64,000 bases of DNA from an uncultured Anaerolineales bacterium (GCA_964393895.1 CAYMWP010000003.1:18351-82350), one strand, 5' to 3'. Counted from the stretch's first letter, positions 1 to 28,882 are shown. Numbers and translations are program-made. Notes: generated by a model not told the origin, from the letters alone.

Positions 1-326
1 TCGTTCCTATCCAGACTGAATACTACGCCGCCCACACGCTGCTCTACTTTATCAGGCTGGTGCAGCGCGTGCGAGAAAAGACCAACCCGCGCCTGCAATA
101 TCGCGTGTTGGTGACGATGTACGACCGGCGCAACAAGATCTACCGGGTCATATTGGACCAGATGCAGCGTGGGCTGAGCAAGGTGCTCTTCAAGACGATT
201 ATCGAGGTAGATACCAAGTTGCGGGAAAGCCCGGTGTTTGGCCAGCCGATCACGCTCTACGCGCCGCGCACTCGTGGCGCCATGCAGTACCGCGCTCTGG
301 CCGAGGAGCTGATAAACTATGAGTGA
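1..326 (+). CDS. ParA/Soj-family partition ATPase, C-terminal part (5' end outside window)
   Basis: The frame is open from the window edge. Translation VPIQTEYYAAHTLLYFIRLVQRVREKTNPRLQYRVLVTMYDRRN... resembles the C-terminal half of ParA/Soj ATPases. The stop overlaps the next start by 8 nt. Confidence 0.7.
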   Translation, partial: VPIQTEYYAAHTLLYFIRLVQRVREKTNPRLQYRVLVTMYDRRNKIYRVILDQMQRGLSKVLFKTIIEVDTKLRESPVFGQPITLYAPRTRGAMQYRALAEELINYE

Positions 327-2052
327 TAATGACCTCAGAGATCATCTCAGTGGATTGTTCTCCGACATCGTTCCCGAACCGGATTTGGAGACGGAGGCTG
401 AGGCTGAGGAGGAGGAATTCCTCCCGCTAGAGGAAAGGGTCGTTTTCGGCCTCCTCGAAGATGATGTTGCCTTTGCCGCACCTGAGCGAACGGCGGCGGA
501 ACCAGCGCTATCGGCCCCGGTCGGGCCGGAAGGGAGCGGAGTAGAGGTAGACGTCTCCTCGAGGCGCGTGAAGAGAAGCGCAGCGACTCCTTCCTGGAGG
601 ATAACGCTGGGGAAACGGAGCATCAGTATTCTCAGCCTCCTGCTGTACGGAGTGCTTATTCTCGGAGGCGCCCCTCTCGTTTTCTTACTGGTCCGCTTCA
701 TTTGGCAGGGAGAGGTGGCCTGGTCGAGTTTGCCTTTCTGTCTCACGTTCTATACGCTGGCTGTCGTGGTAACGCTGGTACAATGGTTTTTTAATTCTTC
801 CCTGTCGAAAACTGCCCAGGAGGTAGAGGAGCGGCTCGGCGAGGCGCTGCGCTTGCGGACGTTTCTCGAGGGTCGGGTGCAGGAGATAGCCACCGCCAAC
901 GCTTCGTTGCAGAGACGGGTCTTGCAACTCCAGGCCGGAACCGAGATTTCCCGCTCGGTCATTGCGATACTGGAACTAGACAGATTGCTGCCAGAGACGG
1001 TCAGCTTGATCCGTGACCGCTTTGATCTCTATCACGTTGGCCTCTTTTTGATTGACCAGGCCGTCGAGAGCGCCGATGGGATGTGGGCAGTATTGCAGGC
1101 GGGTACGGGTGAGGTGGGCTTCCAGATGTTGGCGCAGGGCCATAGGTTTGCGGTAAACGACGAGTCGCTGGTGGGGCGTTGCATCCTCGACGCTCGGGCC
1201 CGTATCGCTCTGGATAACGCTGCGGCGCACGATTGGCTGCGGTACGAGGACGAGTCGCTAGGCCCAGGTGAAGAGGCCCTACATCCTGGCGGCGCGATAG
1301 ACGCCGTCGAGTACAATTCTCTATTGCCGAAAACGCGCTCGCAGATGGTCTTGCCACTGCTTGTTGACGGTCGGGTGATCGGCGCGCTGGACATTCATAG
1401 CACCGAGCGTGAGGCGTTCTCCAAAAGAGATATTCCCGCGTTTCAAGCGCTGGCCGATTACGTGGCGGCGGCCATCGGCAACGCGCGGGTATTTGCAGAG
1501 ACCCGATCTCGCCTGGAGGAACTCGTCCAGAGTAGTATCCGTGAACAGCGATCCAGGCTGGCACCTTCTCGCTCTGTTCCGTTGTACGAGCGCGTGCGAT
1601 CGGGCGTGCGGCCGTTTGGCGACGTCGTGCCGCCCGAAATCGAGCATGCGGTGACCGAGCGAGAGGCAGTGGTACGGTCCGACGTGAGCGCCGGCGGCCG
1701 AGAGTCCACACTGGTGGTGCCGGTTGCGTTGCGTGACCAGGTGTTCGGCGCGTTGGGGTTGCAGGAGGTGGAAACCGGGCGGCAGTGGACGGACGACGAG
1801 GTCGCTCTCATCGAGGCCGTGGCTACCCAGATGGCGCTGGCTATCGAGAACGCCCGCTTGTTAGAGGGCACCCGGCGGCGTGCCGAGCGGGAGCGCCTCA
1901 CCTCCGACATCACCGCCCAGGTCCGAGCTTCGACCGACGTGGACACCATCCTGCGCACGGCGATCCGGGAACTAGGGCAGGCGTTGCGCGCGTCTGATGG
2001 AGCGATTCGGCTGGGCGGCGGTGATGCCGGCTCTCTGCTATCTGAAGAGTGA
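319..2052 (+). CDS. Membrane-anchored GAF-GAF sensor protein with no output domain
   Basis: 577 aa ORF with an acidic N-terminus and two hydrophobic helices (ISILSLLLYGVLILGG..., LPFCLTFYTLAVVVTLV). Two GAF-type modules end in IGNARVF and IENARLL, followed by a conserved about 50 aa C-terminal tail. Confidence 0.8.
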   Translation: MSDNDLRDHLSGLFSDIVPEPDLETEAEAEEEEFLPLEERVVFGLLEDDVAFAAPERTAAEPALSAPVGPEGSGVEVDVSSRRVKRSAATPSWRITLGKRSISILSLLLYGVLILGGAPLVFLLVRFIWQGEVAWSSLPFCLTFYTLAVVVTLVQWFFNSSLSKTAQEVEERLGEALRLRTFLEGRVQEIATANASLQRRVLQLQAGTEISRSVIAILELDRLLPETVSLIRDRFDLYHVGLFLIDQAVESADGMWAVLQAGTGEVGFQMLAQGHRFAVNDESLVGRCILDARARIALDNAAAHDWLRYEDESLGPGEEALHPGGAIDAVEYNSLLPKTRSQMVLPLLVDGRVIGALDIHSTEREAFSKRDIPAFQALADYVAAAIGNARVFAETRSRLEELVQSSIREQRSRLAPSRSVPLYERVRSGVRPFGDVVPPEIEHAVTEREAVVRSDVSAGGRESTLVVPVALRDQVFGALGLQEVETGRQWTDDEVALIEAVATQMALAIENARLLEGTRRRAERERLTSDITAQVRASTDVDTILRTAIRELGQALRASDGAIRLGGGDAGSLLSEE

Positions 2053-2073
2053 CCGTGAAAGGACGCGGCAAAG

Positions 2074-4554
2074 ATGGCGCACATGAACAGAGATACAATG
2101 TCTGAAGAGATACACCAGCCAGTGGTCAGGCGGAGTATTAGAACGCGGCTCGTGGTGCTGCTGTTAGGTTTAGCCACGGTGTCGGTGTTGACCGTCGGTT
2201 ACTTGGGCGTTGACTCGGTACAGGACGTGGGTGAAAGCGCGCAGCGGATCAGCGCGGGGGCATTGCGTTCTCAGGCGGAAGAGTATTTGCGCCAGGTGGT
2301 CGTCGGTGATGCGCGGAGGAACGATCTCATATTGAAGCGGATACAAGGAGATGCCGCCAACCTGGCCCAGTACGCCGCAGGAATCTTTGGACAGCCCGAC
2401 GCTTTCACCAGCGGCGCCTATTGGCGGGCCGAGGACCACATGTTCGTTGGTCCCGATGGCCAGTATATGAACGACGAGACTGGCGCGAGCAGCGTCTTTG
2501 TCCCCGATTTCGCGGACGTGGACGAGGAGCTGCAATCGCTTCTGGAGTTGAGCGCCTACCTGGATTTCGTCTTTGCCCCGACCTACGAGAATGACGCCAA
2601 CACGGTGGCGATCTATCTGGGGATGGAGCGAGAAGTGACCCGCTATTACCCCAACGTCAATCTGGGTACTCTCATTCCGCCGGACTTTCAAATCACCCAG
2701 CGCCCCTGGTACGTCTCTGTCGTCCCGGAGAGCAATCCCGAGCGGGCGGTGGTGTGGTCGCCCGTCTACGTGGATGCCACCGGCCAGGGCCTGATGGTCA
2801 CAGCCGCCGCTCCCGTATACGCCGGCGGGGACGAATTCGTGGGAGCTATTGGCATTGACGTCACCCTCGGCGACATCAGCGTCAGCATCGAAGAGACGCG
2901 GTTGCTTGGCAGCGGCTACTCCTTTTTGCTCGACGAGACAGGGCACGCCATTGTCCTGCCAGAAAGAGGGTATCGAGACATCCTGGGACGTGATCCCGAG
3001 CTCGACGAGGTGTGGGCCGATCTGAGTGGAGTGACGACAGAGTTCGCCCCTGTGCTGGAAGCAATGATGGCCGGCTCGGTTGGCTTTGACACTCTGGAGG
3101 TAGGTGGAACGGAATTGTTAGTCGCTTATGCCCCGTTGGAGAGCACGGGGTGGAGCCTGGCCAACGTCGTTGACGCCGAAGCGGTTCTTCAGACTGTGGG
3201 TACGTTGCAGACCGAGCTGGAAGCTTCATCCAAATCACTGGTGCTGGCGCGCATCTTGCCCCTTGGTGGAGGTATCCTCGCCGTAGCGACCCTGGTTGGC
3301 CTTTTCTTCACCGTCCGGCTGGTTGACCCCATCAAAAAACTGGCGACAGCCGCTGTGCGGGTTGGGGCCGGGGAGTGGGATGTTGCGCTTCCACCGGCGG
3401 GGGATGACGAGATCGGCGCGCTGGCTCGAGTGTTCGGGATGATGGTCGCCCAGATACAGGAATTGGTTTCAGGTCTGGAACAGCGTGTGGCCGAGCGCAC
3501 GCGCACCCTGGAGCGCCGCGCTACTCAGATGGAGGCCGCGGCCCTGGTAGCCCGAGATGCTGCCGAGATCCGTGACGTGAACCAATTGCTCGACGAGACG
3601 GTACGGCTTATTTCTGAACATTTCGGCTTTTACCACGCCGGCATCTTTTTGCTGGATGACCAGGGGGAGTACGCGGTGCTGCAGGCTGCCTCGTCTAGGG
3701 GCGGGCAGCGCATGCTGGCGCGGGCGCACAAGCTAAAAGTGGGCGAGGTGGGCATCGTGGGATATGCGGCGGGGACGGGGAACCCTCGCATTGCGCTGGA
3801 CGTGGGGGCCGACGCCGTCTTTTTCGACAATCCCGATTTGCCCGAAACTCGCTCAGAGATGGCGCTGCCGCTAAAGGTACGAGAGCGAGTGATCGGGGTG
3901 TTGGACGTGCAATCCACGGAAGGCGCGGCCTTTTCCAACGAGGACGTGGCAACCCTCCAGATCATGGCCGACCAGGTGGCGCTGGCCATCGAGAGTGCTC
4001 GTTTGTTGGACGAGAGCCGGTCGGCGCTGCGAGAATTGGAATCTCTCTATGGACGAAGGACGCGCGAGTCCTGGCAAGAGCGTGTAAGTGCCTATCGTTA
4101 CACCGGTGTGAGAGTGGAGCAAGTCCCGTCGTTATCTCTCCCAGAGCTGGAGGACTCACTCTCCCGCCAGCAGCCGGCCGTCGTGCGTGAGGTTGACGGT
4201 CCCCGCTTGGTCGCCCCCATTCGCTTACGTGGGCAGGTTATTGGCTCCATCCTCCTGCGCCAGGAGCCTGACCAGGCCCCCTGGTCGTCGGATGAGCTGG
4301 CGTTGATTGACGAGGTCAGCACGCAGATCGGGCTGGCGCTGGAAAACGCCCGCTTGCTGGAGGAGACGCAGAAACGAGCAGAGCAAGAGCAAATGCTGGG
4401 CGAAATGACCGCCCGCTTTACTCGCTCCCTCGACGTGGATGGGTTGCTACGAGCCGCCGTGCGCGAACTGGGGCGCTTGCTGCCGGTCGAAGAGGTGTCG
4501 GTTCACGTGATCCCTCCCGAAGAGACTCGCTCGGCGCCAGCGGACGAGGAATGA
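2074..4554 (+). CDS. dCache-HAMP-GAF-GAF sensor protein with no output domain
   Basis: 826 aa. N-terminal TM helix, a periplasmic Cache-like region with an RPWY motif, a second TM helix, and a HAMP-like segment (DPIKKLATAAVRVGAGEWD...DEIGALARVF). Two GAF modules end in IESARLL and LENARLL, then the conserved tail. Confidence 0.85.
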   Translation: MAHMNRDTMSEEIHQPVVRRSIRTRLVVLLLGLATVSVLTVGYLGVDSVQDVGESAQRISAGALRSQAEEYLRQVVVGDARRNDLILKRIQGDAANLAQYAAGIFGQPDAFTSGAYWRAEDHMFVGPDGQYMNDETGASSVFVPDFADVDEELQSLLELSAYLDFVFAPTYENDANTVAIYLGMEREVTRYYPNVNLGTLIPPDFQITQRPWYVSVVPESNPERAVVWSPVYVDATGQGLMVTAAAPVYAGGDEFVGAIGIDVTLGDISVSIEETRLLGSGYSFLLDETGHAIVLPERGYRDILGRDPELDEVWADLSGVTTEFAPVLEAMMAGSVGFDTLEVGGTELLVAYAPLESTGWSLANVVDAEAVLQTVGTLQTELEASSKSLVLARILPLGGGILAVATLVGLFFTVRLVDPIKKLATAAVRVGAGEWDVALPPAGDDEIGALARVFGMMVAQIQELVSGLEQRVAERTRTLERRATQMEAAALVARDAAEIRDVNQLLDETVRLISEHFGFYHAGIFLLDDQGEYAVLQAASSRGGQRMLARAHKLKVGEVGIVGYAAGTGNPRIALDVGADAVFFDNPDLPETRSEMALPLKVRERVIGVLDVQSTEGAAFSNEDVATLQIMADQVALAIESARLLDESRSALRELESLYGRRTRESWQERVSAYRYTGVRVEQVPSLSLPELEDSLSRQQPAVVREVDGPRLVAPIRLRGQVIGSILLRQEPDQAPWSSDELALIDEVSTQIGLALENARLLEETQKRAEQEQMLGEMTARFTRSLDVDGLLRAAVRELGRLLPVEEVSVHVIPPEETRSAPADEE

Positions 4555-4560
4555 GGAGGA

Positions 4561-6690
4561 TTGATGACGATGCAGTGGCAATACAACCACTACGTGTTAG
4601 CCTTGGTCATAGTTGCGGCTATGTCGGCTGCCATTGCGTTCTTTGCCTGGAGACGCCGCCCGGCCTCCGGCGCTGCAGCGTTAACCTGGCTCATGCTGGC
4701 TGGGAGCGAGTGGGCACTGGTGTACGCGGTGGAAATGGCGAGTCTGAATCCGCCGATCAAGGTTTTGCTGTCTCAGGTGATGTACATTGGCGTTGTCAGC
4801 GTGCCAACGATGTGGTTCATCCTTACGGTGCAATACACCGGCCGGAAAAGATGGCTGACGCGCCGCAACCTGGTTCTCTTGATGATTATGCCGTTATGTA
4901 CACTGCTGCTTGTCTGGACTAGTGGTGTGAACGATGGACACGGTTTGATCTGGCGCGAAATCGAGATTGATACCAGCGTCTCGCCGGCGATTTGGGACTT
5001 GACTCATGGCGTGTTTTTCTGGGTTTATCTAGCGTATAGCTACTTGTTGGTTCTGTCCGGTTCACTCCTCGTTTTCCAGTCGCTCATCCGTTCGCCCAAG
5101 CTGTATCGCGGACAGGCCGTCGCGTTGTTGATTGCTGCGCTAACGCCGTTGGCGGGGAATGTGTTGTACGTCTCTGGCCTCGTCCCGTTTCCGGGCCTGG
5201 ACATCACGCCCTTTGCCTTTGCCTTGACCGGCTTGGCGATGGCCTGGGCTTTGTTTTACTTCCGGCTGTTGGACGTTGTGCCGGTGGCGCGCGAGGCCGT
5301 CATCGCAGGTTTGGCCGATGGCGTGATCGTGTTGGACGCGCAGGACCGTATCGTGGACCTCAATCCGGCCGCGGCACAAATCATCGGCCACCCGGTCGCA
5401 GAGGTCATCGGACAATCGGCCGGACACGTGTTGTTGGGTTGGGGCGACGAGGTCGGACGCTATAGTGATGTGACAGAGACGCGGGAAGAGATCGTTTTGG
5501 GTACAGGCGAGATGCAGCGCACTTTTGACTTGCGCATCTCTCCCCTGTCTGATAGGTACGGACAACTCACCGGCCGGCTGGTCTTTTTGCACGACATCAC
5601 TGAGCGCAGACGAATTGAGGAGGTGCTGCGACGCCGGGCCGTGCAACTTCAGGCGGCGTCAGAGGTGGCCCGCGACGCCGCTGCCGTGAGCGAGTTGGAC
5701 GAATTGTTGTCCCGAACCGTCAACCTGATACGCGAGCGCTTTGGATTCTACCACGTCTCCATTTTCCTGGTGGACGAGCGGGGCGAGTACGCCGTGTTGC
5801 GGGCGGCGACTGGCGAGATCGGCCGCCAGATGCTGGAGCAAGGGTATCGCTTGAAGGTGGGCCAGGAGGGCAGCGTTGGCTACGTCGCTGCGGTGGGTCT
5901 ATCTCGCATCGCCCTTGACGTGGGCGCCGGCGCGACCCGTTTCGACGATCCGTTCCTGCCAGAGACCCGTTCAGAGATGACGTTGCCGCTGCGTGTGGGC
6001 AAGGACACCGTCGGCGCCTTGGACGTGCGGAGCCGGGAGGCGGAGGCGTTCGACGAGAACGATGTGACCGTCTTGCAGACGATGGCTGACCAGTTGGCAG
6101 TCGCCATTCAGAACGCGCGCCTGCTCGGCGAGATGCAGCACATGTTGCACGAACTCCAGGTGGCCTCCGGCCGCCACACCCGGGAAATGTGGCAGGCCGA
6201 ACGGCCCAGAGGGTATCGCTATCGGGGATTGGGCGTTGAGCAACTCGCCGAGCGCCCCCCTGAGGTTGACCAGGCGTGGCAGTGCGGACGACCCGTAACC
6301 ACTCCCCGGCCTGCAGCGGAAGGCGACGGGGGAGACGCTATCGGCAGCCTGGCCGTGCCTCTGAAGCTGCGCGATCAGGTGCTGGGCGTGCTCAACCTGC
6401 GCTTTAGGGACGAGGCTACTTCGCCCGAGATGGCCTCGCTGGTCGAAGAGTTGGCCGACCGGCTGGCGCTGGCCCTGGAAAGCGCCCGCCTGTTCGAAGA
6501 GACCCAGTCCCGCGCCCGGCGCGAGGAAACCATCCGCCAAATCACCGAGCAGATGCGTCGCGCCGTGGACGTGGAGACTATTTTGCAGACCACCATCGCC
6601 CGCTTGGGAGACGCCCTGGGCGCCCCCCGCGTATACGTCCGCTTGGGTACCGATGTCGAAGAGTTGCCCAACGACGATAGAGCGAGTTGA
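4561..6690 (+). CDS. 7TM (histidine-kinase N-terminal 7TM-like)-PAS-GAF-GAF sensor protein with no output domain
   Basis: 709 aa. Multiple N-terminal hydrophobic helices, a PAS-like segment (ADGVIVLDAQDRIVDLNPAAAQIIG), GAF modules ending in IQNARLL and LESARLF, then the conserved tail. Confidence 0.85.
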   Translation: MMTMQWQYNHYVLALVIVAAMSAAIAFFAWRRRPASGAAALTWLMLAGSEWALVYAVEMASLNPPIKVLLSQVMYIGVVSVPTMWFILTVQYTGRKRWLTRRNLVLLMIMPLCTLLLVWTSGVNDGHGLIWREIEIDTSVSPAIWDLTHGVFFWVYLAYSYLLVLSGSLLVFQSLIRSPKLYRGQAVALLIAALTPLAGNVLYVSGLVPFPGLDITPFAFALTGLAMAWALFYFRLLDVVPVAREAVIAGLADGVIVLDAQDRIVDLNPAAAQIIGHPVAEVIGQSAGHVLLGWGDEVGRYSDVTETREEIVLGTGEMQRTFDLRISPLSDRYGQLTGRLVFLHDITERRRIEEVLRRRAVQLQAASEVARDAAAVSELDELLSRTVNLIRERFGFYHVSIFLVDERGEYAVLRAATGEIGRQMLEQGYRLKVGQEGSVGYVAAVGLSRIALDVGAGATRFDDPFLPETRSEMTLPLRVGKDTVGALDVRSREAEAFDENDVTVLQTMADQLAVAIQNARLLGEMQHMLHELQVASGRHTREMWQAERPRGYRYRGLGVEQLAERPPEVDQAWQCGRPVTTPRPAAEGDGGDAIGSLAVPLKLRDQVLGVLNLRFRDEATSPEMASLVEELADRLALALESARLFEETQSRARREETIRQITEQMRRAVDVETILQTTIARLGDALGAPRVYVRLGTDVEELPNDDRAS

Positions 6691-6737
6691 GAAATGGCAT
6701 ACGGCTCAACAGATACGTCGAGTTATTGATCGAGGAA

Positions 6738-7766
6738 ATGACGATGAGTGAGACTTCTCTCGAAGAATACAAACGGCTGCTGGAAAAACAGGGACGGGCG
6801 TTGGTGCAAGTCATCCAATCCGTGGCCCTGGGAGACCTGGACGTAGAGGTCGAGATTCCGGAGGGAATTCAGATGCTCTCCGAGTTGGCCGCCGGGTTAG
6901 AGATGATGATTGACCGTCTGCGGAAGGAGAAGGCTGAGCAAGAGCGGGCAGCGGAGGGCCAGCGTAAAGCGTTGGCTGAGGCGTTGCAGACGACGCGCGA
7001 GCTGACCGAGGAGCGGGATGAGACCCGGAGGCGACTGGAAGAACAAACCGCTCTGCGGGAAGCGGGCCTCATCCTCACCTCTGCACTGGATCAGAGCACC
7101 GTGTTGACCCGCCTTGCCGAGCAGGTATGTCGGGCGGTAGATGGCACCAGCACCTACATTTCGTCCTACGATCCAGAGACGACGGCCGGCGTCGTCTTGG
7201 CCGAGTATTACGGCCCGGAAGCTTGTGCCAAAGAGCGCGTATCCGATCTGGGGGAATCGTATGGCGTCGAGGAAAGCGTCGCTCTCGTCAACGCCGGCGT
7301 TCCTCACCAATATCACGTGGACGACCCTGACCTGGCCGAGTTCGAACGGGCCGCGCTGCGGCAGTATGGAGGCCAATCAGTATTGATCGTTCCCTTGCAG
7401 CTCCGCGCTCGAACCATTGCCTATGTGGAGTTGTGGGATAGCCGAGGACGAAGGGAGTTCACGCCGGAAGAGATCGCCCTGTGCCAGAGCGTCGTGCAGC
7501 AGGCTGCCATGGCTATAGAGAACGCCCGCTTGATCGAGCAGACCCAGGCCCGCGTCCGCCGCGAGCAGGTGTTGCGCGAAATCACCACCCGTGTGCGTAC
7601 CTTCACTGATTCTGATGTCATCCTGCGCGCCGCCGTGCGCGAGCTGGGCGCTGCCTTGGGACGGCCCGCTTTTGTCCTTTTGGGCAGCGCGGAGGAACTG
7701 TCGCCAGTGCTTGCGGAGGTGAACGACGACGACCAGGGGATGGCTTTGCGACAAGGAGACGAGTAG
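6738..7766 (+). CDS. Coiled-coil single-GAF protein
   Basis: The ORF track starts at TTG 6687. ATG 6738 is preceded by GAGGAA and is preferred. One GAF module ends in IENARLI, followed by the conserved tail. The stop lies 1 nt before the next start. Confidence 0.7.
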   Translation: MTMSETSLEEYKRLLEKQGRALVQVIQSVALGDLDVEVEIPEGIQMLSELAAGLEMMIDRLRKEKAEQERAAEGQRKALAEALQTTRELTEERDETRRRLEEQTALREAGLILTSALDQSTVLTRLAEQVCRAVDGTSTYISSYDPETTAGVVLAEYYGPEACAKERVSDLGESYGVEESVALVNAGVPHQYHVDDPDLAEFERAALRQYGGQSVLIVPLQLRARTIAYVELWDSRGRREFTPEEIALCQSVVQQAAMAIENARLIEQTQARVRREQVLREITTRVRTFTDSDVILRAAVRELGAALGRPAFVLLGSAEELSPVLAEVNDDDQGMALRQGDE

Positions 7767-7767
7767 T

Positions 7768-11769: not shown

Positions 11770-11794
11770 CGGTTTTCTGAAATCTCGGGTTGGG
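11761..11794. repeat. Degenerate copy of the GGTTTCAGAAAACC-core palindromic element (inverted orientation)
   Basis: AAACCCTAACGGTTTTCTGAAATCTCGGGTTGGG. The left arm and core are conserved and the right arm is degraded. It contains the stop of the upstream GAF gene. Confidence 0.55.
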
Positions 11795-11805
11795 AGTAGC
11801 AAGCG

Positions 11806-14800: not shown

Positions 14801-17800
14801 AAATGGCGCTGCCCCTGAGGATGCGTGGTCGCACCATCGGCGTGCTGGACATTCAGTCCACTCAAGAGGCTGCTTTCTCCGAGGAGGACGTGGCGGGGTT
14901 TCAGACGCTGGCCGACCAATTGGCCGTTTCCATAGATAACGCCCGCCTGGTAGAGCGCACAGGAGAACAGTTGCGTGAGCAGGAACGTCTCTACGGTGAG
15001 TACAGCGCCTCCGCCTGGGCCGAGTTGCTGTCGCCCGTTCGACCGCTGGGTTACATCTACGATCGCATTGACGTCTCGCCGATATTGGATTCGCCGGCGC
15101 CGCTTGATTTGGCCCCGCAGCGCGTCGAGGCGGAGACGACGGGCGCAATATTGACCATGCCCCTCAAGGTGCGGGGTCGCACGGTCGGCATCCTGGGCGT
15201 AGAAGAGAGCGATGCCGCCCGTGAGTGGTCGTCTGAAGAGGTCGCCATCGTCGAGGCAGTGAGTGACCAGGTAGCCATGGCGCTGGATAGCGCCCGTTTG
15301 TTTGGAGAGGCCCGCACTCGCGCCGAGGAGTTGGCCGTGTTGAACGAGTTGGCTCAATCTCTCACTGCCCGCCTGACCGTGGACGATGTGCTGGAAGAGA
15401 CTTACCAGGGCGTGTCTCGCTTGCTGGATACCACTAACTTTTACATCGGTCTCTACGACCCACAAAAGAACGAAATATCCTTTCCTTTTAACATCACCGA
15501 ATCGGCGGTGGACGAACAGATCGTCGCCATCTCGGCCGATCAGGGGTACGCTGGCTACATAATGCGGAACCGCACGAGCCTGCTCCTCACGGAGGACACC
15601 ATAGAGCAGGTAGTGGAGCGGACGGCCAAGATGGGTATTGAGCATATCGGGCAGTTGGCCCTTTCTTACCTGGGAGTGCCGTTGGTGGTCGGCGACCGGG
15701 TGCTGGGGGTCATGGCGGTTCAAAACTATACCGTGCCCCACGTCTACAGCGAGCACGACCGGAACTTGTTGACGGCCATCGCCAGCCAGGCGGCCATTGC
15801 TCTTCAGAGCGCCCATCTTTTCGAGGAAGCGCAACGGAGGGCGGCTCAGTTGGCGGCGGCTGCCGAGGTCGCCCGGGACGCCACAGCCATCCTGGAAGTG
15901 GACCAGTTGCTAGACGAGACGGTGCACCTCATCTCGGAACAGTTTGGTTTCTACCACGCCGGCGTGTTTTTGCTGGACGAACGGGGCGAGTACGCCGTTC
16001 TGCAAGCGGCCTCTTCCGAGGGCGGGCGCCGCATGTTGGAGCGGGGGCACAGACTGAAGGTCGGCGAGGTTGGCATCGTCGGCTACGCCGCGGCCACGGG
16101 AGAACCTCGCGTCGCTCTGGACGTGGGACAGGATGCCGTGCACTTTGCCCACGACGATCTCCCCGATACCCGTTCGGAGATGGGATTGCCGCTCAAAGTG
16201 CGGGAGAGAGTGATCGGCGTGCTGGACGTTCAATCTGACCAGACGGCCGCTTTCTCCGCTGACGACGTCGCGGCTTTGCAGACGATGGCCGACCAGTTGG
16301 CTATTGCCATTGCCAACGCTCGCTTATTTCAAGAGACCCGCTCCGATGTGTTGCGCCGCGCCCTCATCAACGAGGTGCTCCAGGCCGCTACCGCTTCGCT
16401 GGATCCAGAGGAGTTGCTTCACCAGGCCGGAGAGGTCATCTCCCGGCGACTAGAGTCGCCCACCGCGCTCTTTGTCTGGGAGGCGGAGGATAAAGTGTTC
16501 CGTACGGTCGCCGTCCACGACTCCCAGGCTGCCGACGTCTCGTTACCTGGGGTATTTCAGCAAGTGACTCGCGGGGTAGCCCCGGTTCTCTTTGAGGCGG
16601 CGGAGAGTCGGCGCACTGCCGTTTTGGAGCTGACCTCCGATGCAAGCGGCCCGTTGGTCACTGCGGCCAGGTGGGCGCGGGCGCAATCCATCATTTACGT
16701 TCCTCTGATATCCCGTGATCAGGTACTGGGTTTGCTTGGTATTGGGAAACTCGAGGAGCAGCCTGTCGTGGACGTCGAGTTCACCGAACTCGTGGCCGCC
16801 AACCTGACCGTGGCCGTGGAAAACGCCCGCTTGTACCAGGAGGCAGTGCAAACCGCCGAACGCCTGGCAGAGGTAGACCGGCTCAAGAGCCAATTCCTGG
16901 CTAACATGTCCCACGAACTGCGCACACCGCTCAACTCTATCATTGGTTTCTCGCGGGTCATTCTCAAAGAGATTGATGGCCCGCTTACCGATATGCAGCG
17001 CACTGACCTGCAATCTGTCTACGATAGCGGGCAGCATTTGTTGGGGTTGATCAACGATATCCTGGAAGTGGCCAAGATAGAATCTGGCAGGATGGATTTG
17101 GTCTCGGAAGTGGTGAATTTACAGGATATTATCAGGGGCGTCATGTCAACCGCCATCGCGCTGGTCAAGGACAAGCCCGCCGTCGAATTGCAGCAGTCTG
17201 TTCCCCAAGACCTGCCCACGATTATGGGCGACACGCGGCGTATCCGCCAGGCGATCCTCAATCTCGTCTCGAACGCTGCCAAATTCACCACGGAAGGCTT
17301 TATTCGTGTGGAAGCCGAGGTTGTAGATACCGAGGTGATCGTCTCTGTGGCCGATAGCGGTGTCGGCATCCCGCCAGACAAGATTGATATGATCTTTGAG
17401 CCTTTCACTCAGGCCGACGCATCCACTACCCGCGAGACTGGGGGCACGGGGCTGGGCCTTTCCATCACCAGCAGCTTTGTCGAGATGCACGGCGGTCGTA
17501 TGTGGGTGGAGAGCGAGGTGGGTAAAGGCTCTACATTCTACATGGCATTGCCCATTCATACCCTCTCTTCTATTGAGGAACAAGTGGAGGAGGAACAGCC
17601 AGAGTTAGAGCCTGGACAAAGAGTCGTTCTCTGCGTAGAGGATGACGAAGGAGTCATCACCCTCTTCCGCCGTTACCTGAGCAAGCGGGGCTACAGGGTA
17701 GTCGGTCTCTCCAACAGTATGATGGCGTTGGAACGAGCGCGAGAGTTGCAGCCGTTCGCCATAACGTTGGACGTGATGATGCCCGGCAAGGATGGCTGGC

Positions 17801-18369
17801 AGGTCGTTCAGGAGTTGAAGGCTGATCCTGCGACCAGCGATATTCCCGTTATAATGTGTACCATCGTAGGCGAGGAGGAGCATGGCCTTAGCCTGGGAGC
17901 GGCCGATTACTTGATCAAGCCGATTCTCGAGCAGGACTTGTTGGCTGCGCTGAATCGTCTGGACCGGCAGGATGAGCGACACTTGGTGTTGGTGGTGGAT
18001 GACCTGCCGGAAGATCGAGATCTGTTGAGCCGGATGATCGAGAGCCAAGAGGGATACGAGGTTATGGGGGCCGGCGGCGGCGAGGAGGCCATCGCCATGA
18101 TCCGGCAAACGTTGCCCGATATTATTATTTTGGATCTGATGATGCCAAACGTGGATGGTTTTGCAGTACTCGAGGCGGTCAAGACAGACGAGAACACTCG
18201 CTCTATTCCCATCATCGTTGTAACCGCCAAAGATCTGACCCCAGAGGAGCGCGAGGTCCTGACCGGTGAGGTAGAGTCCCTGCTCCACAAAGGAATCTTT
18301 GACCGGCAAGAGTTACTGGCAGACGTGGCAGGGGCGCTGGAGCGCCTGAGAGGCAAGGTAGGAGACTGA
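11806..18369 (+). CDS. Giant hybrid sensor histidine kinase: PAS - about 9 GAF - HisKA - HATPase_c - REC - REC
   Basis: 2187 aa. Nine GAF-terminal motifs (IENARLF ... VENARLY). H-box FLANMSHELRTPLNSIIGF, G-box GGTGLGLSITSSFVEMHGGRMWVES, and two receiver domains (LDVMMPGKDG and LDLMMPNVDG). Confidence 0.9.
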   Translation: MVKTSDKQKTEVQLVEELQEPEEQRKWAVESLQASEEKYRAILENIEEAYYEVDLAGNFTFFNSMLCQMLGYTADELMGANYRRYTDDVYADMVYRIFNKVYRTGEPTRILDWEVNSKDGARKLVESSVSLIRDAAGKPVGFRGIVRDVTGRKWTEAEIVKLNRELTTLNRVGQALTSALDLEETLTLITEQVTNLLGVEATSVILHDEVQDDLCFAAASGSGADFILNARFELGQGIAGWVVQHGEAAVVPDVSRDVRWFRDFDHKSGLETRSILCVPLRAKGQIIGAIEAVNKWDGDFDQDDLRLLTSLAAPAATAIENARLFGQSQARAEELAVLNELGQALTAHLDVEGVLDEAYRGVSRLMDTTNFYVALCEPGEEEVTFAIDVLEGEVRRSRETRRAGRGLTEHVIQTREPLLIEEELPERLEELGIALIGRIALSWLGVPLVVGDQVLGVMAVQSYTRPRLYGQRERDLLVSVASQAAIAIENARSYEQEQARAKELAVLNELSQSLTASLSVEDVLEEAYRQAARLVDTTNFYIGLYDSDKEEVAIPFIVSKSEIDRHITVVPADQGFTGYIIRNRTAVLVEENVIEWLEENGISVIGEPALSWLGVPLIVGDQVLGVMAVQSYITPRLYGEHDRKLLTAIAGPTAIAIQNARLYEQAQREIGERKRAEAEVRRRAEQAALTYKVGQRVSGELALDELLSEIVIAVHDAFDYYGVMLLLEGEAGFLTLQSAAGGYIDVLPTDIEIAVGEGMIGRAAASGVAQVSNDVSQNPYYVRNANEDTKSELAVPIESGGRVIGVLDLQSDELDAFDETDVMLMETLADQVGVVIENARLYEEIQRELAERERMEGVLQETHEELEKYTTILERQTARLRVGAEVTRKVSAILDVRQLLEETVRLISNEFGFYHSAVFLVGESGEYAILRAASSAGGRRMVERGYRVPLGGKDAVGYVAATGEHCIALDVGEGAAMLPFDRGGAVAFNNPDLSDTRSEMALPLRMRGRTIGVLDIQSTQEAAFSEEDVAGFQTLADQLAVSIDNARLVERTGEQLREQERLYGEYSASAWAELLSPVRPLGYIYDRIDVSPILDSPAPLDLAPQRVEAETTGAILTMPLKVRGRTVGILGVEESDAAREWSSEEVAIVEAVSDQVAMALDSARLFGEARTRAEELAVLNELAQSLTARLTVDDVLEETYQGVSRLLDTTNFYIGLYDPQKNEISFPFNITESAVDEQIVAISADQGYAGYIMRNRTSLLLTEDTIEQVVERTAKMGIEHIGQLALSYLGVPLVVGDRVLGVMAVQNYTVPHVYSEHDRNLLTAIASQAAIALQSAHLFEEAQRRAAQLAAAAEVARDATAILEVDQLLDETVHLISEQFGFYHAGVFLLDERGEYAVLQAASSEGGRRMLERGHRLKVGEVGIVGYAAATGEPRVALDVGQDAVHFAHDDLPDTRSEMGLPLKVRERVIGVLDVQSDQTAAFSADDVAALQTMADQLAIAIANARLFQETRSDVLRRALINEVLQAATASLDPEELLHQAGEVISRRLESPTALFVWEAEDKVFRTVAVHDSQAADVSLPGVFQQVTRGVAPVLFEAAESRRTAVLELTSDASGPLVTAARWARAQSIIYVPLISRDQVLGLLGIGKLEEQPVVDVEFTELVAANLTVAVENARLYQEAVQTAERLAEVDRLKSQFLANMSHELRTPLNSIIGFSRVILKEIDGPLTDMQRTDLQSVYDSGQHLLGLINDILEVAKIESGRMDLVSEVVNLQDIIRGVMSTAIALVKDKPAVELQQSVPQDLPTIMGDTRRIRQAILNLVSNAAKFTTEGFIRVEAEVVDTEVIVSVADSGVGIPPDKIDMIFEPFTQADASTTRETGGTGLGLSITSSFVEMHGGRMWVESEVGKGSTFYMALPIHTLSSIEEQVEEEQPELEPGQRVVLCVEDDEGVITLFRRYLSKRGYRVVGLSNSMMALERARELQPFAITLDVMMPGKDGWQVVQELKADPATSDIPVIMCTIVGEEEHGLSLGAADYLIKPILEQDLLAALNRLDRQDERHLVLVVDDLPEDRDLLSRMIESQEGYEVMGAGGGEEAIAMIRQTLPDIIILDLMMPNVDGFAVLEAVKTDENTRSIPIIVVTAKDLTPEEREVLTGEVESLLHKGIFDRQELLADVAGALERLRGKVGD

Positions 18370-18374
18370 CAAAG

Positions 18375-20042
18375 ATGAAACAGAACGGATTCAACCACCG
18401 GGTTTGGCTGGAATGTGCGGATTGTGGGCACCGCACTTTGTTTGTTCGTCCGCTGAGGGCGTGTGAAAAGTGTGGCGGGCAATGGCTCGACGCGACTTAT
18501 GATTATGACCGTATTCGGGAGCAATGGCCGGCCGTGTTGAGCAAGCGCCCTTTCGACATGTGGCGCTATCGGGAACTCTTGCCTTTGCGCGACGACGTCA
18601 ACAAGGTGACGATGGGGGAGGGTGGAACGCCGCTGCTCCACGCCGTCAACCTGGGAGTGATGCTCGGCGCTCCCCACATCTACTTCAAAGACGAGCGGCA
18701 GGGGCCGACCGGTTCGTTCAAAGACCGGCAGGCGGCGTTGGCTATTTCGGTGATGAAGGAGCACGGTGTGACTGAGGCGATCGTCGCTTCTACAGGCAAC
18801 GTTGCCATTTCCTACTCGGCCTACTCTGCGCTGGCCGGTATCAAGATGTGGACTTTTCTCACCAGCCTGGTGCCATCTGAAAAGATGCGCGAGGTGGCGC
18901 TTTATGGGAGTGAGGTCGTCAAAGTGACCGCCACCTACGATCAGACCAAGCGAGTGGCGGCCGATTTTGCCGAGCGTAAAGGGATCTTTCTCGACCGGGG
19001 TATTCGGAGCATCGCGGCCCGCGAGGCTATGAAGACCGTCGCTTTCGAGATGGCCGAGCAGTTACCCCTGCTGGTTGGCTCCGGCGCTACCCCCTGGCGC
19101 GCGCCCGATTGGTACTTTCAGGCCGTCAGTGGGGGAATGGGGCCGGTAGGTGTGTGGAAAGCTTACCAAGAGTTGATAGAGTTGGGTCTGGTGGACAAGG
19201 CGCCCAAATTAGCTTGCATCCAGGCCGCCGGCTGTGCACCGATGGTACACTCCTTCGACAAGGGCTTGGAGGAGGCCGAGCCGATCCTCAACCCTCAGAC
19301 GTTGGTCATCACCATCGCCACCGGAAACCCCGGCCCGGCCTATTCTTTCTTGGCTCGTGTCGTCCGGGAGCACGGAGGGGCCTTTGAGTCCGTGACCGAC
19401 GAGGAGACTTTCCGCGCTATGCACGTGATGGCCAAGTTGGATGGCGTCTCGATGGAACCGGCGGCGGCGGTCGCTTTCGCCGGGTTGTTCAAGTTGCTCA
19501 GTAAGGGTATAATAAAACGTGACGAGGTCGTGGTCGTCAATTGCTCCGGCCATACCTTCCCGGTCGAAAAGCACCTGCTGGGCGGCGAGTGGGCGAGGAC
19601 GGTGGAGGTGCCCTCTGAGAAGCCTACCGTCGAAGAGGGATTGTTAGGTTCTTTGGAACAACTGGATGGCCGGGTACAGAGCATCGCCATCATTGAGGAT
19701 AACCCTCAGGCTACGCTGTTGTTGCGACGTATCCTGCAAACCAGGGGAGAGCATCGGGTTTTCGAGGCGCACGATGGGGCCGAGGGGTTAGAGTTGGTGC
19801 GCCGCGAGCGGCCTGACTTGGTCTTGTTGGACCTGATGATGCCGGGTATGGATGGCTTTGAAGTGCTGGACGCGCTCAAGGCCGACGAAGACTTGAGAGA
19901 CGTGCCGGTGATTGTCATCACGGCCAAAGAGTTGACCGCCGCCGAGCGGCAGCGCCTCAGTGGAAGGATTGACAAATTGATGCAGAAGGGTTCCTTTACC
20001 GATGAAGAACTGTTGGAGGAGATTCTCAAGCGGGCATCATGA
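18375..20042 (+). CDS. Threonine-synthase-like PLP-dependent enzyme fused to a C-terminal receiver (REC) domain
   Basis: N-terminal Cys4 ribbon (CADCGH...CEKCGG). ThrC-type motifs WRYRELLP, GEGGTPL, and PTGSFKDRQAALAIS carrying the PLP lysine. C-terminal REC (IAIIEDNPQ..., LLDLMMPGMDGF, VIVITAKE). Confidence 0.85.
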   Translation: MKQNGFNHRVWLECADCGHRTLFVRPLRACEKCGGQWLDATYDYDRIREQWPAVLSKRPFDMWRYRELLPLRDDVNKVTMGEGGTPLLHAVNLGVMLGAPHIYFKDERQGPTGSFKDRQAALAISVMKEHGVTEAIVASTGNVAISYSAYSALAGIKMWTFLTSLVPSEKMREVALYGSEVVKVTATYDQTKRVAADFAERKGIFLDRGIRSIAAREAMKTVAFEMAEQLPLLVGSGATPWRAPDWYFQAVSGGMGPVGVWKAYQELIELGLVDKAPKLACIQAAGCAPMVHSFDKGLEEAEPILNPQTLVITIATGNPGPAYSFLARVVREHGGAFESVTDEETFRAMHVMAKLDGVSMEPAAAVAFAGLFKLLSKGIIKRDEVVVVNCSGHTFPVEKHLLGGEWARTVEVPSEKPTVEEGLLGSLEQLDGRVQSIAIIEDNPQATLLLRRILQTRGEHRVFEAHDGAEGLELVRRERPDLVLLDLMMPGMDGFEVLDALKADEDLRDVPVIVITAKELTAAERQRLSGRIDKLMQKGSFTDEELLEEILKRAS

Positions 20043-21385
20043 TCGCTAAGGACAGTACAAAGATTCTCTACGTAGAGGACGATCCATCTAGCGCGACTTT
20101 GATGCGTCGCCTGCTCGAAAGCGAGGGCTACCGGGTCGTGCACGCCTCGGATGGCCTCTCCGCCATAGAGGTTGCCAGGTGCGAGTCGCCTGACCTGATC
20201 CTGATGGATATAAACATCGGTGGATTAGATGGCTACGAGTTGACCACTCTCCTGCGCTCCATCGAGGAACTGGAGCACGTGCCCATCGTGGCCGTTACTG
20301 CCGCCACGTTGGATGGCGACCGAGAGCGTGCGCTCATTGCCGGATGCACCGGCTACATCCCCAAGCCGATCAACGTGGACGAATTCCCGAGCCAGGTGTA
20401 TTCCTTTCTCCAGGGGACGAAGGAAGAGATCGAGTCTGCGGAGGAGAAGAGCGAGTACCTGGTCGAGTACAGCCGTAGCCTGGTGGATCGGTTGGAGAGC
20501 AAGATCCGCGAGCTGGAGGGGGCGCATGCCGAGTTGCAGCGCATCGAGAAGGTAAAGTCGGACTTTATCATCCTGGCCAGCCACGAGCTGCGCACGCCGA
20601 TGACGTGCGTCTATGGTTACATCCAGATGTTGCTCGCCAACCCGGATATTCCCGGCGATGCCGACGAGGAGGGCAGCGCCCGCAACTTGCTCCACCGCAT
20701 CGCCTCCGCCACACACCGGCTTGGGCTGGTCTTTGACGAGATCCGCAACGTTTCCCTCATTGACGCCGATCGCCTGGATCTGGCCTGGGAGCCGGTGCCC
20801 CTCAGGTCGCTGATCCGCAACGTGGTGAACAGTCTGGAGAAGGTTGATCCAATGCGGGATTTGAAATTCGATTTTGAGGGAGTTGATGATCTACCGGTGC
20901 TCTATGGGGACGATAAGCGTTTGCACCAGGCGCTATGGAATGTCATCAGTAACTCGATAAAGTACACGCCCGACGGCGGACACATACGCATCGTGGGCCG
21001 TCAAATTCAGGATACGGTGCATCTATCTATCCAGGACAGCGGCGTGGGTATTCCTCCGGGGGAGCAGGAGCACATATTCGATCACTTCTACGTGTTGGAG
21101 GATACCAGCTTTCACCACACCAGTAAAACGGCGTTCAAGGGGGGAGGGTTAGGGCTGGGGCTTACCGTGGCTCGAGGCATCATCGAGAATCACGGCGGCA
21201 AGATTTGGGTGGAAAGCGAAGGGTACGACGAGGAGCGGTTGCCGGGCAGCACCTTTCACATTCTCCTGCCGTTGCGTGAAGCTTCGCTCTCGTTGTACGA
21301 TACATCTATTCCAGCTTCCATTCCAGGGGAACATTACCCTCTGCCAGATGCATCCCTGGATCGCGAGACATCAGAATCAGACTGA
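20039..21385 (+). CDS. Response-regulator receiver - HisKA - HATPase_c hybrid histidine kinase
   Basis: ATGA overlap with the upstream stop. REC (ILYVEDDPSS..., ILMDINIGGLDG), H-box LASHELRTPMTCVYGY, and an ATPase G-box GGGLGLGLTVARGIIENHGGKIWVES. Confidence 0.9.
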   Translation: MIAKDSTKILYVEDDPSSATLMRRLLESEGYRVVHASDGLSAIEVARCESPDLILMDINIGGLDGYELTTLLRSIEELEHVPIVAVTAATLDGDRERALIAGCTGYIPKPINVDEFPSQVYSFLQGTKEEIESAEEKSEYLVEYSRSLVDRLESKIRELEGAHAELQRIEKVKSDFIILASHELRTPMTCVYGYIQMLLANPDIPGDADEEGSARNLLHRIASATHRLGLVFDEIRNVSLIDADRLDLAWEPVPLRSLIRNVVNSLEKVDPMRDLKFDFEGVDDLPVLYGDDKRLHQALWNVISNSIKYTPDGGHIRIVGRQIQDTVHLSIQDSGVGIPPGEQEHIFDHFYVLEDTSFHHTSKTAFKGGGLGLGLTVARGIIENHGGKIWVESEGYDEERLPGSTFHILLPLREASLSLYDTSIPASIPGEHYPLPDASLDRETSESD

Positions 21386-26372: not shown

Positions 26373-26479
26373 TGCTCTGTCCTCGGCTGGGGGTGGCAGA
26401 CGGTAGACAGGGGAAGACAATTCCCAGTCTCGAGAGAAAAGGCCGGGGTATTCTCTGTTTACCGTCTGCCGTTCGCGGT

Positions 26480-26533
26480 CTACTTCTTTTTCTTCTTCTT
26501 ATCTTTCTTGTTCTTATCTTTCTTCTTGCTCAT
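26480..26533 (-). CDS. Candidate 17-aa Lys-rich micro-ORF (MSKKKDKNKKDKKKKKK)
   Basis: An ATG preceded by GGAGGT with a 7-nt spacer, and a TAG stop. It lies between a PPK2 gene and ppk1. It is too short for the ORF track. Confidence 0.35.
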   Translation of the reverse strand: MSKKKDKNKKDKKKKKK

Positions 26534-26564
26534 AGCTTTGACCTCCGTAGATTAATAGAGTTCC

Positions 26565-27350: not shown

Positions 27351-27359
27351 AATTTCCCC

Positions 27360-28139: not shown

Positions 28140-28159
28140 TTTTCGCCTCCCCCGATTGA

Positions 28160-28851: not shown

Positions 28852-28882
28852 ACCTCCATTGGGGTTATGTCTTGGAATGTAA

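Follow-up and report, generated by a model that had tools for sequence, protein, structure and literature searches.

In two-component signalling, sensor and kinase are usually described as sharing one protein; the chief exception is chemotaxis, where many receptors use a common kinase. The 64,000-nucleotide stretch of DNA from an uncultured Anaerolineales bacterium analysed here (the window) encodes a row of large GAF-containing sensors followed by a hybrid histidine kinase, and raises the question of how sensors that carry no recognised output could pass on a signal.

Gene organisation of the array

By ORF analysis, eight closely packed genes (g1 to g8) lie on the same strand at positions 319-21385 (+) of the window, separated by gaps of 21, 6, -4, 1, 36, 5 and -4 nt. 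At the g4/g5 junction the stop codon TAG (7764-7766) is followed by an ATG at 7768, and g7 and g8 share an ATGA overlap at 20039; the tight co-directional row of the original prediction is thus present, together with both of these junctions. In the public annotation g3 begins at 4564 and g4 at 6744, the latter making the g3-g4 gap +53 nt, and with these starts and the ParA-like gene described below the gaps range from -8 to +53 nt. Promoters or terminators between the genes, which had been named as evidence against a single operon, were found at no junction in a scan with consensus sigma-70 and intrinsic-terminator patterns, which may not fit Chloroflexota. The sequence of the locus suggests that the array genes are co-transcribed.

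The array is larger than the eight genes first proposed, since on the source contig the row begins left of 319. There the operon extends leftward by four more sensors with the C-terminal tail described below and by a ParA/MinD-like ATPase, and the contig holds at least nine sensors, five of which are inside the window. The 3' end of the ATPase gene occupies 1..326 (+), cut at the window edge, and runs with its stop codon into the start of g1, the overlap being 8 nt; the full gene (source contig L089, 9247-10008) encodes 253 aa, of which the window contains the C-terminal 108 codons. The protein matches AAA_31 (175 bits) and CbiA (67 bits) and displays the Walker A motif KGGVAKTT. Three related arrays contain the gene at 88-91% identity, and two more distant arrays have it as well. 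Of the distinct arrays examined, only 5 showed it (window contig, L002, L086, L087, L022, L024), in part owing to limited flanks.

Input modules and GAF domains

Pfam and hydropathy analyses of the five sensors bear out the predicted input modules (2TM, dCache-HAMP, 7TM-PAS, coiled coil and PAS x3). The first protein, g1 (319..2052, +; 577 aa), is a 2-TM sensor with a type A GAF, a short type B GAF and the tail, while g2 (2074..4554, +; 826 aa) is arranged as TM-dCache_1-TM-HAMP, GAF A, GAF B and tail, and g3 (4561..6690, +; 709 aa, likely start ATG 4564) as HisKA_7TM-PAS, GAF A, GAF B and tail. The fourth protein, g4 (6687..7766, +), is soluble and according to Pfam consists of a HAMP-like coiled coil, which is a weak match, one GAF and the tail; it measures 359 aa from a TTG and 340 aa from the publicly called ATG 6744. 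The soluble g5 (7768..11769, +; 1333 aa) displays a helical N-terminal domain, three PAS domains, five GAF domains and the tail. Hydropathy gives two TM segments each for g1 and g2, approximately seven for g3 and none for g4 and g5. The sole chemoreceptor-related match among the eight proteins is MCP-like_PDC_1, in the input domain of g2.

The reading frames of the sensor genes are intact. Neither HisKA nor HATPase_c, nor any enzymatic or DNA-binding domain, was found in g1-g5 with Pfam and NCBIfam, and to this extent the claim of five proteins without output holds; what it had overlooked is a conserved, type-specific C-terminal tail. A known output domain hidden in g1-g5 was rejected, as Pfam searches with the tails and N-termini taken separately (E<=10), together with NCBIfam, returned only partial GAF/HAMP matches.

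GAF stretches in g1 to g6 number 2+2+2+1+5+9 = 21 (Pfam E-values down to 4e-132), which matches exactly the approximately 21 modules first counted from a recurrent terminal motif. All 21 pass the gathering threshold, with whole-protein scores of 38-435 bits compared to cut-offs of 22-29 (PF01590/PF13185/PF13492), and six of them are of the reduced "short" type B, aligning to the C-terminal half of the Pfam models only. The xENARLx helix closes every module (21/21) and is visible in the DNA of the window as a 58-71 nt repeat, detected in 13 copies with 60-79% identity. Modules g6.5/g6.6 and g6.8 of the kinase are of the sensor-like A and B types, g2.1 and g6.8 being 75% identical. Both the comparison of modules and the DNA repeats show that the array genes are paralogous. 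Foldseek searches with the g1 model retrieved generic GAF and tandem-GAF folds only. The top match, 3mmh (TM 0.80), points to free methionine sulfoxide reductase for the type A GAF; this function was rejected, the A modules being cysteine-free by inspection of the translations.

A common C-terminal tail

All five sensors (5/5) end in a common unannotated C-terminal module of ~57 aa. Its core is located, on the + strand, at 1846..2016 in g1 (residues 510-566), 4342..4512 in g2 (residues 757-813), 6478..6648 in g3 (residues 640-696), 7518..7688 in g4 (residues 278-334) and 11569..11739 in g5 (residues 1268-1324). In this tail a long helix prolongs the last GAF helix; beyond a turn lie a helix of 15 residues and a short hydrophobic segment, and the module is followed by a short, acidic and disordered end. 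The tail is found behind any GAF type.

No Pfam or NCBIfam family was obtained for the tail, which gave only a sub-threshold GAF match over positions 1-26 or 1-38 (15-17 bits compared to a cut-off of 22.4). In a PDB sequence comparison it aligns with the start of phytochrome-type GAF/PHY domains, and in multi-GAF proteins it is matched by the beginning of the following GAF, for instance at the junction from g6.6 to g6.7. The tail is thus homologous to the opening helix and strand of an additional GAF domain. It does not contain a complete GAF domain, AF2 giving two helices with the sheet absent. Indeed, a helical hairpin is predicted for the tails of g1 (model of residues 165-577, mean pLDDT 86.5) and g4 (a low-quality model, mean pLDDT 69). 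Both monomer models leave the C-terminal ~20 residues, and with them the conserved hydrophobic stretch, without structure, which counts against the docking model discussed below.

The tail is unlikely to be a helix-turn-helix DNA binder, given that a match to an HTH family is absent and that its carriers are mostly membrane proteins. Recent gene conversion was also rejected as the source of tail similarity, since the DNA repeats within the window are just 60-79% identical. The tail is the kind of cryptic module that the original prediction had named as speaking against it, yet it is no recognised output domain.

Distribution and conservation of the tail

A tail HMM scores C-terminal tails at 50-98 bits compared to 15-35 bits for internal GAF-GAF junctions, and a broader tail HMM gives a median of 53.5 bits for tails against a maximum of 24.6 for internal junctions. 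Among 328 retrieved relatives, 200 end in the tail under a strict criterion and 211 under a looser one, some of these proteins reaching 2,697 aa; they are currently annotated only as "GAF domain-containing protein", with the tail unrecognised. In a set of the 150 best multi-GAF representatives, 54 are tail-ended and 57 contain a kinase, the two never occurring together, and in 120 g1 homologues the tail ends 114 and a kinase is present in 1. The tail hence replaces an output domain and is mutually exclusive with kinase domains. At E<=1e-3 the tail profile reaches 23,145 representative clusters, a number inflated by internal GAF junctions. Tailed proteins far outnumber the cassettes with the PALP-REC protein (g7, described below), so the tail may serve a more general role; this counts against the docking model.

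Tails in orthologous positions are 77-93% identical between genomes compared to 40-72% for the sensor bodies, and tails of different types are 32-60% identical to each other. The g2-type tail is 84% identical in array L086 and 77% in L002, there attached to g1-like bodies; the g3-type tail is 93% and 89% identical in the same two arrays and is carried there by a different sensor body. The g4 tail is 82% identical in L002, and the g5 tail 91% in L086, where the protein body is 48% identical, and 88% in L002. Mosaics thus occur, one combining a g2-type tail with a g1-like body and another a g3-type tail with a different sensor body. By these comparisons the tail is more strongly constrained than the sensor bodies, and type-specific.

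Kinases and PLP enzyme

As predicted, Pfam finds HisKA-HATPase-REC-REC in g6 (11806..18369, +), a hybrid kinase of 2187 aa without tail in which these domains follow one PAS and nine GAF domains. The H-box SHELRTP is at 1702 and the G-box at 1850. A pattern search reported the phospho-acceptor Asp motif in the second REC; in the first REC the Asp, unreported by the search, was seen by eye in the translation (LDVMMPGKDG).

Pfam and NCBIfam describe g7 (18375..20042, +; 555 aa) as a Zn-ribbon and threonine-synthase-like PLP enzyme with a C-terminal receiver (Pfam PALP 203 bits, Response_reg 76 bits). Its scores are below the threonine synthase equivalog cut-offs (NF006050, 267.5 compared to 303; TIGR00260, 155.5 compared to 167.1) while the PALP fold and the SFKDR lysine motif are present, and g7 is therefore termed threonine-synthase-like. 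Both the SFKDR motif and the receiver Asp are intact. The literature covered, which is sparse for subscription journals, gave no description of a threonine synthase-receiver fusion.

The last gene, g8 (20039..21385, +; 448 aa; Pfam, NCBIfam), encodes a second kinase, REC-HisKA-HATPase. The histidine-kinase signature (SHELRTP and DSGVGI motifs together with Pfam) is found within the operon in g6 and g8 only, and the claim that only the sixth protein has HisKA-HATPase was wrong, as g8 carries it too (Pfam). Nor is there a single kinase output, given this second kinase and the fusion of a PLP enzyme with REC in g7. Pfam locates four REC domains in the operon, a pair in g6 and single ones in g7 and g8, and the Asp motif was detected by pattern in the second one of g6 and in those of g7 and g8. 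Overall, the kinases and the PLP enzyme have intact catalytic motifs, as do the receivers of g7 and g8 and the second one of g6. An Hpt domain was not found in the operon with Pfam, which counts against the proposed route from g6 to g7 and g8. The likeliest end point of the signalling route is g7.

Conservation of the array in relatives

Full-length copies of g7 (PALP-REC) come from Chloroflexota in 23/23 cases, and of the 23 species in which g7 has a full-length orthologue, 18 gave informative loci, whose domains were labelled with our own BLAST and HMM probes and not with curated models. The order of tailed GAF proteins, kinase and PALP-REC is observed in 18/18 informative genomes, the kinase being immediately preceded at each locus by 1-3 tailed GAF genes, and g7 is only 47-58% identical among these 18. 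A relative whose g4 orthologue is 71% identical keeps the order of tailed sensors, g4, g5, g6 and PALP-REC. Gene order is hence kept in relatives, from the g4-g5-g6-g7 core of this genome to all 18 informative ones, and the array layout recurs across Anaerolineae. Small versions of the array consist of a kinase-less membrane sensor followed by a soluble GAF kinase of 620-634 aa with no recognisable input domain. MCPsignal, CheA and CheW are absent from the eight window proteins and from the gene calls of related arrays.

Models of signal transfer

We consider the chances about even that the locus is one copy of a conserved Anaerolineae/Thermoflexia cassette with sensing and kinase on separate proteins, i.e. 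a split receptor-kinase system in which interchangeable sensors contact the kinase through their tails. Each sensor would consist of its own input module (2TM, dCache-HAMP, 7TM-PAS, HAMP-like or PAS), then GAFs, then the tail, and the latter would be the output of the sensors, as a type-specific docking or assembly element. The state of the sensor would be passed by direct tail contact to the GAF-rich hybrid kinase g6, which has the same A/B GAF types, and the kinase or kinases would phosphorylate the receivers of g7 and g8, resulting in altered enzyme activity and not in a transcriptional response. The ParA-like ATPase within the array may organise the assembly. Within this scheme the tail-kinase contact is putative, and both the direction of phosphotransfer and the part played by the ATPase are presumptive. 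As originally proposed, the sensors may form a hetero-oligomeric assembly.

A bolder form of the split receptor-kinase reading, which we regard as possible though doubtful, is that the tailed GAF proteins are the receptors of a previously unrecognised Chloroflexota-specific system, chemosensory-like but built from unrelated parts. Interchangeable inputs would converge on a few tail "channels", each docking at its own site on the giant multi-GAF kinase or in a ParA-organised lattice, and the integrated signal would control the PLP enzyme by phosphorylation.

The tail could instead be a structural cap only, the end of a four-helix bundle or coiled coil stabilising a parallel dimer of the last GAF, with the signal transmitted by A/B GAF heterodimerisation between sensor and kinase or by a common diffusible ligand. 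The tail directly prolongs the helix of the last GAF, AF2 predicts it as a hairpin, it follows GAFs of any type, and in its A/B modules g6 shares up to 75% identity with the sensors; however, a generic cap should neither form distinct types that stay 77-93% identical while bodies drift to 40-72%, nor swap between bodies as a unit, and we regard this explanation as unlikely. By analogy with chemoreceptor arrays, the tails might also drive the assembly of a lattice or bind the ParA-like positioning ATPase, without controlling the kinase one to one. In some bacteria, chemoreceptor clusters are positioned by ParA-like proteins, and the array shares with such clusters many receptors with varied periplasmic or membrane inputs and HAMP, one conserved cytoplasmic end and an ATPase gene conserved like the tails (88-91%). 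Given the lack of MCPsignal, CheA and CheW in the window proteins and in the gene calls of related arrays, and a ParA-like gene seen in just those 5 arrays, partly from limited flanks, a receptor cluster of this kind seems quite unlikely.

The split receptor-kinase reading also has to be weighed against autonomous sensors, whose ligands and targets would lie outside the operon and which would be found beside the kinase merely through tandem duplication of GAF-encoding DNA. The genes are paralogous, arrays change through recombination and tailed proteins greatly exceed the cassettes found, all of which would be expected of such sensors. Against this, the order from sensors to kinase to PALP-REC persists in 18/18 informative genomes even though g7 is only 47-58% identical, and the minimal versions consist of a membrane sensor lacking a kinase together with a soluble kinase lacking a sensor, making autonomy very unlikely. 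Finally, that the tail is homologous to the beginning of the following GAF in multi-GAF proteins (g6.6 to g6.7) is what would be expected of decayed or split remnants of larger multi-GAF kinases. Such a pseudogene or gene-fission origin is hardly credible and was rejected: the frames are intact, the cut falls at the same position in 200 or more proteins, the tail is better conserved than internal junctions, and downstream genes open with their own membrane or PAS input module and not with a leftover GAF.

Comparison with known systems

Both g6 and g8 resemble the multi-GAF/PAS hybrid histidine kinase phosphorelays of cyanobacteria and Chloroflexota in their ordinary HisKA/HATPase domains with intact H-box, G-box and receiver Asp, and the GAFs of the array are joined by long helices as are the tandem GAFs of PDE2, PDE5 and phytochromes. 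Unlike in those phosphorelays, most sensing resides here on separate transmitter-less proteins, and the operon has neither an Hpt protein nor a DNA-binding response regulator. As a receiver with intact Asp joined to an enzyme domain, g7 is similar to the REC-enzyme regulators CheB, PleD and RpfG, but its enzyme is a threonine-synthase-like PLP enzyme and its REC is C-terminal. MCP-CheW-CheA arrays likewise combine diverse inputs and HAMP with one conserved cytoplasmic end, a separate kinase and a ParA-like ATPase in the gene cluster. The likeness is one of analogy only, as there is no sequence relationship, MCPsignal, CheW, CheA, CheR and CheB are absent here, and the conserved end is a GAF-derived hairpin of ~57 aa, unlike in MCP arrays.

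In Staphylococcus carnosus, the stand-alone GAF nitrate sensor NreA modulates the separately encoded kinase NreB (PMC12423327, PMC8139620). There as here, an output-less GAF protein is encoded beside a histidine kinase and is presumed to act by protein contact, an interaction that is putative for the array sensors. NreA is however a single soluble GAF without a tail, whereas the array proteins, of 340-1333 aa, are mostly multi-GAF membrane receptors with a dedicated conserved C-terminal tail, many per kinase. Searches of the literature on GAF proteins in Anaerolineae/Chloroflexota, output-less sensors and MASE11, with sparse coverage of subscription journals, gave no description of the system.

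The array would represent a second many-receptors-one-kinase layout, of independent origin, which appears to be widespread in a major, little-studied phylum, and the tail profile reaches thousands of protein clusters. If the tail is an output element, it would constitute a new signalling module explaining how output-less sensors could work, the array would offer a naturally occurring case of exchangeable inputs on constant output channels, and the PLP enzyme-receiver fusion would suggest direct metabolic control via a phosphorelay. Split-GAF complementation, in which the tail would complete a truncated GAF of the next protein or of the kinase, received no support, as TM, dCache, 7TM or PAS modules open the downstream genes. 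In the small kinases of relatives, which bear on the same idea, ~77 residues lie ahead of the GAF match, leaving room for a whole domain.

Gene content of the row

ORF calling placed eight plus-strand genes (g1-g8) at window 319-21385, with successive junctions of 21, 6, -4, 1, 36, 5 and -4 nt; the TAG/ATG at 7766/7768 and the ATGA overlap at 20039, both quoted in the original prediction, are present in the sequence. No consensus promoter or terminator signals were found at these tight junctions, and the row may form one transcription unit. Pfam matched the predicted domain reading of the sensors g1-g5 and of the giant hybrid kinase g6 almost item by item, and likewise gave 21 GAF modules (2+2+2+1+5+9). 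Indeed, g1 carries GAF x2 with two TM segments by hydropathy, g2 dCache_1-HAMP-GAF x2, g3 HisKA_7TM-PAS-GAF x2, g4 a weak HAMP-like coiled coil and one GAF, g5 PAS x3-GAF x5, and g6 PAS-GAF x9-HisKA-HATPase-REC-REC. Residues 1-125 of g5 (window 7768-8140) form a helical N-terminal domain with no Pfam match, which is kept in the orthologue of the related array L002.

An xENARLx-type helix closes each of the 21 GAF modules, and its trace in the DNA is a diverged repeat of 58-71 nt. Numbering the modules within each gene, type A ('FGFYH' motif) comprises g1.1, g2.1, g3.1, g6.5 and g6.8, with 75% identity between g2.1 and g6.8; type B, a reduced 'short' GAF, comprises g1.2, g2.2, g3.2, g5.2, g5.5 and g6.6; g6.2, g6.3 and g6.7 make up type C, and several modules are singletons outside these types.

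As for the output, the kinase domains predicted for g6 are there, but g7 and g8 had been left undescribed, and by Pfam g8 is REC-HisKA-HATPase, a second kinase. The g7 product combines a Zn-ribbon, a threonine-synthase-like PLP enzyme (PALP, 203 bits) and a C-terminal receiver, and scores 267.5 bits on NF006050, under the cut-off of 303. At its N-terminus (window 18375-18500) a CxxC...CxxC zinc-ribbon-like motif (CADCGH...CEKCGG) precedes the PLP domain, together with a weak DUF7129 match. A pattern search recovered the H-boxes and G-boxes, the lysine motif of the PLP enzyme and, for g7, g8 and the second receiver of g6, the receiver Asp; in the first g6 receiver the Asp was read directly from the translation. 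No Hpt domain was seen in the operon.

A C-terminal module shared by the sensors

The reading of g1-g5 as output-less misses a shared C-terminal module, here called the tail, of about 57 residues past the last ENARL helix in each protein. Its consensus is ENARLLEETQRRAERERLLREITARVRASTDVDTILRTAVRELGQALGASRAFVRLG, followed by a short acidic, Gly/Ser/Pro-rich end. The tail shows homology to the linker and the first helix and strand of another GAF domain, gives sub-threshold matches to the GAF profile at positions 1-38, resembles the B-to-C junctions within g6 and aligns with the start of phytochrome-type GAF/PHY domains among PDB sequences; it is not covered by any model in Pfam or NCBIfam. An AF2 model of g1 residues 165-577 (97-sequence alignment, mean pLDDT 86.5) predicts a helix of 46 residues that extends the last GAF, then a turn and a second helix of 15 residues (pLDDT 77-90), with the final ~20 residues disordered. 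The same hairpin appears in a weaker model of g4, and Foldseek matched GAF and tandem-GAF folds only. Past the tail core, 211 homologues carry an extension that is disordered, acidic and rich in Gly/Glu/Ser/Asp/Pro, with a median length of 17 aa. It ends in Glu in 60 of them, with '...GGE' recurring in the samples shown, and may loosely recall the tethering peptides at chemoreceptor C-termini.

A tail HMM scored C-terminal tails at 50-98 bits versus 15-35 bits for internal GAF-GAF junctions, and a broader one gave a tail median of 53.5 bits versus an internal-junction maximum of 24.6. In an exhaustive search of 1.84 billion representatives the profile matched 23,145 clusters at a threshold of E<=1e-3 and 709 when this was set to E<=1e-30, counts that internal GAF junctions inflate; the best match lies at the extreme C-terminus of many multi-GAF giants, which reach 2,697 aa. 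Among the best 150 representatives, 54 end in a tail, 57 have HisKA/HATPase and none has both, and of 120 g1 homologues 114 are tailed and 1 has a kinase. Hence tail and kinase are mutually exclusive in the sampled proteins. The homologues' input modules are TM only, dCache-HAMP, CHASE3-HAMP, MASE11, 7TM-PAS or a periplasmic-binding-like domain, and every homologue with a named source is from Anaerolineae, Thermoflexia or Chloroflexota. We regard the tail as a distinct entity under selection.

Conservation of the array

The eight predicted genes stand, but the row begins earlier and the window start falls inside the operon. Window 1-326 covers the last part of a ParA/MinD-like ATPase gene, whose 3' end overlaps g1 by 8 nt. 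Another four genes for tailed GAF sensors lie further upstream in the source contig (L089; JGI metagenome 3300017989), together with an epimerase gene; all of them run in the same direction, and the gaps range from -8 to +53 nt. With the five of the window, the source contig therefore has at least nine tailed sensors. The NAD-dependent epimerase/dehydratase gene (L089 1394-2353) is read in the same direction as the sensor genes among which it lies and shares 1 nt with the GAF gene that follows.

Gene order is conserved in related genomes, as the original prediction proposed to check, in 18/18 informative loci. A g7-query scan of one genome per species gave 23 full-length orthologues of this PALP-REC fusion, all from Chloroflexota and mostly Anaerolineae. 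All 18 loci with sequence upstream of the kinase have 1-3 tailed GAF genes directly before it, a count bounded by the 10-kb flank; downstream come PALP-REC, usually 1-2 single receivers and, in some cases, another PALP gene (behind the receiver genes in L013, L019, L020, L022 and L023). The Thermoflexia array L086 combines nine tailed genes with one ParA-like and one STAS-like gene and a giant of 2,350 aa; a giant of 3,279 aa closes L087, and L088 has two single receivers, then eight consecutive GAF sensor genes with the tail detected in 6/8. A small STAS/SpoIIAA-like protein gene (L086 13767-14129) stands ahead of a g5-type gene, and a periplasmic solute-binding protein gene (SBP_bac_1; L002 6578-7681) immediately ahead of a HAMP-GAF sensor.

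Tail types of the window were compared with those of L002, L086 and L087, three related arrays. Identity at corresponding positions is 77-93% for tails and 40-72% for protein bodies, versus just 32-60% between tail types, and the order of types before the kinase is preserved. Bodies and tails are also recombined: a g1-like body bears a g2-type tail in L086 (body 62%, tail 84%) and L002 (body 53%, tail 77%), the g3-type tail of L002 (89%) sits on the HAMP sensor beside the solute-binding protein gene and not on a 7TM-PAS sensor, and L087 has a g5-type tail (79%) on a g2-like body. Since universal and type-specific conserved positions move as one unit, this pattern is as expected of a partner-specific interaction element.

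Proposed mechanism and alternatives

We have high confidence in the descriptive findings (domain content, the tail and its conservation, kinase exclusivity, gene order, intact catalytic motifs). Through its tail, each sensor would contact the GAF-rich kinase directly and so act on it, a mechanism to which we give an even chance. The kinase or kinases would then phosphorylate the receivers of g7 and g8, and the end response would be a changed activity of the threonine-synthase-like enzyme, because the operon encodes no DNA-binding regulator.

The tail could instead be a structural cap, with GAF heterodimerisation between the proteins; however, type-specific conserved positions swapped as a unit are hard to square with a mere cap. 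A receptor lattice might also be organised by ParA, the ParA-like protein being 88-91% identical in L002, L086 and L087 and 45-53% in two more distant cassettes. The sensors might otherwise be autonomous. Where the row is smallest, a membrane protein of the form dCache-HAMP-GAF-GAF-tail is followed by a soluble GAF-HisKA-HATPase kinase of 620-634 aa with no recognisable input domain, so that sensor and kinase are separate proteins. That the sensors are decayed kinases is close to excluded, the sole rival we place so low.

The GAF, PAS, HAMP, HisKA, HATPase, REC, PALP and ParA parts are ordinary, unlike their arrangement. As functional precedents, chemoreceptor-CheA arrays and NreA-NreB come closest. 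In chemoreceptor arrays a single kinase serves many receptors that share a conserved cytoplasmic end; every domain defining that family is absent from the eight proteins by Pfam, so the resemblance is analogy only. In NreA-NreB one GAF protein, NreA, acts on the adjoining kinase (PMC12423327, PMC8139620). Neither the tail nor the arrays nor the PALP-REC fusion is described in the literature searched, whose coverage is incomplete, so that an earlier description is possible. We rate the system as two-component signalling with a previously unrecognised conserved module; the observation originally made is confirmed, and its interpretation is upheld in part and substantially extended.

Neighbourhood of the operon

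Just downstream, on the minus strand, lies a polyphosphate/nucleotide cluster (window 22787-30796) with gene calls for a Metallophos-Ppx/GppA-HD protein, PPK1, two PPK2, adenylate kinase and a CYTH-CHAD protein. A row of DNA repair and helicase genes is found on the same strand at window 31154-45127, with a TPR-RecQ-like helicase with HRDC (1059 aa), a DuOB protein, RecJ, a PD-(D/E)XK nuclease and two UvrD-like helicases. The GC content peaks at 0.70 around 32-34 kb (32001-34000), is 0.50-0.53 at 60001-64000 and about 0.60 elsewhere; the low-GC right end of the window could be foreign DNA.
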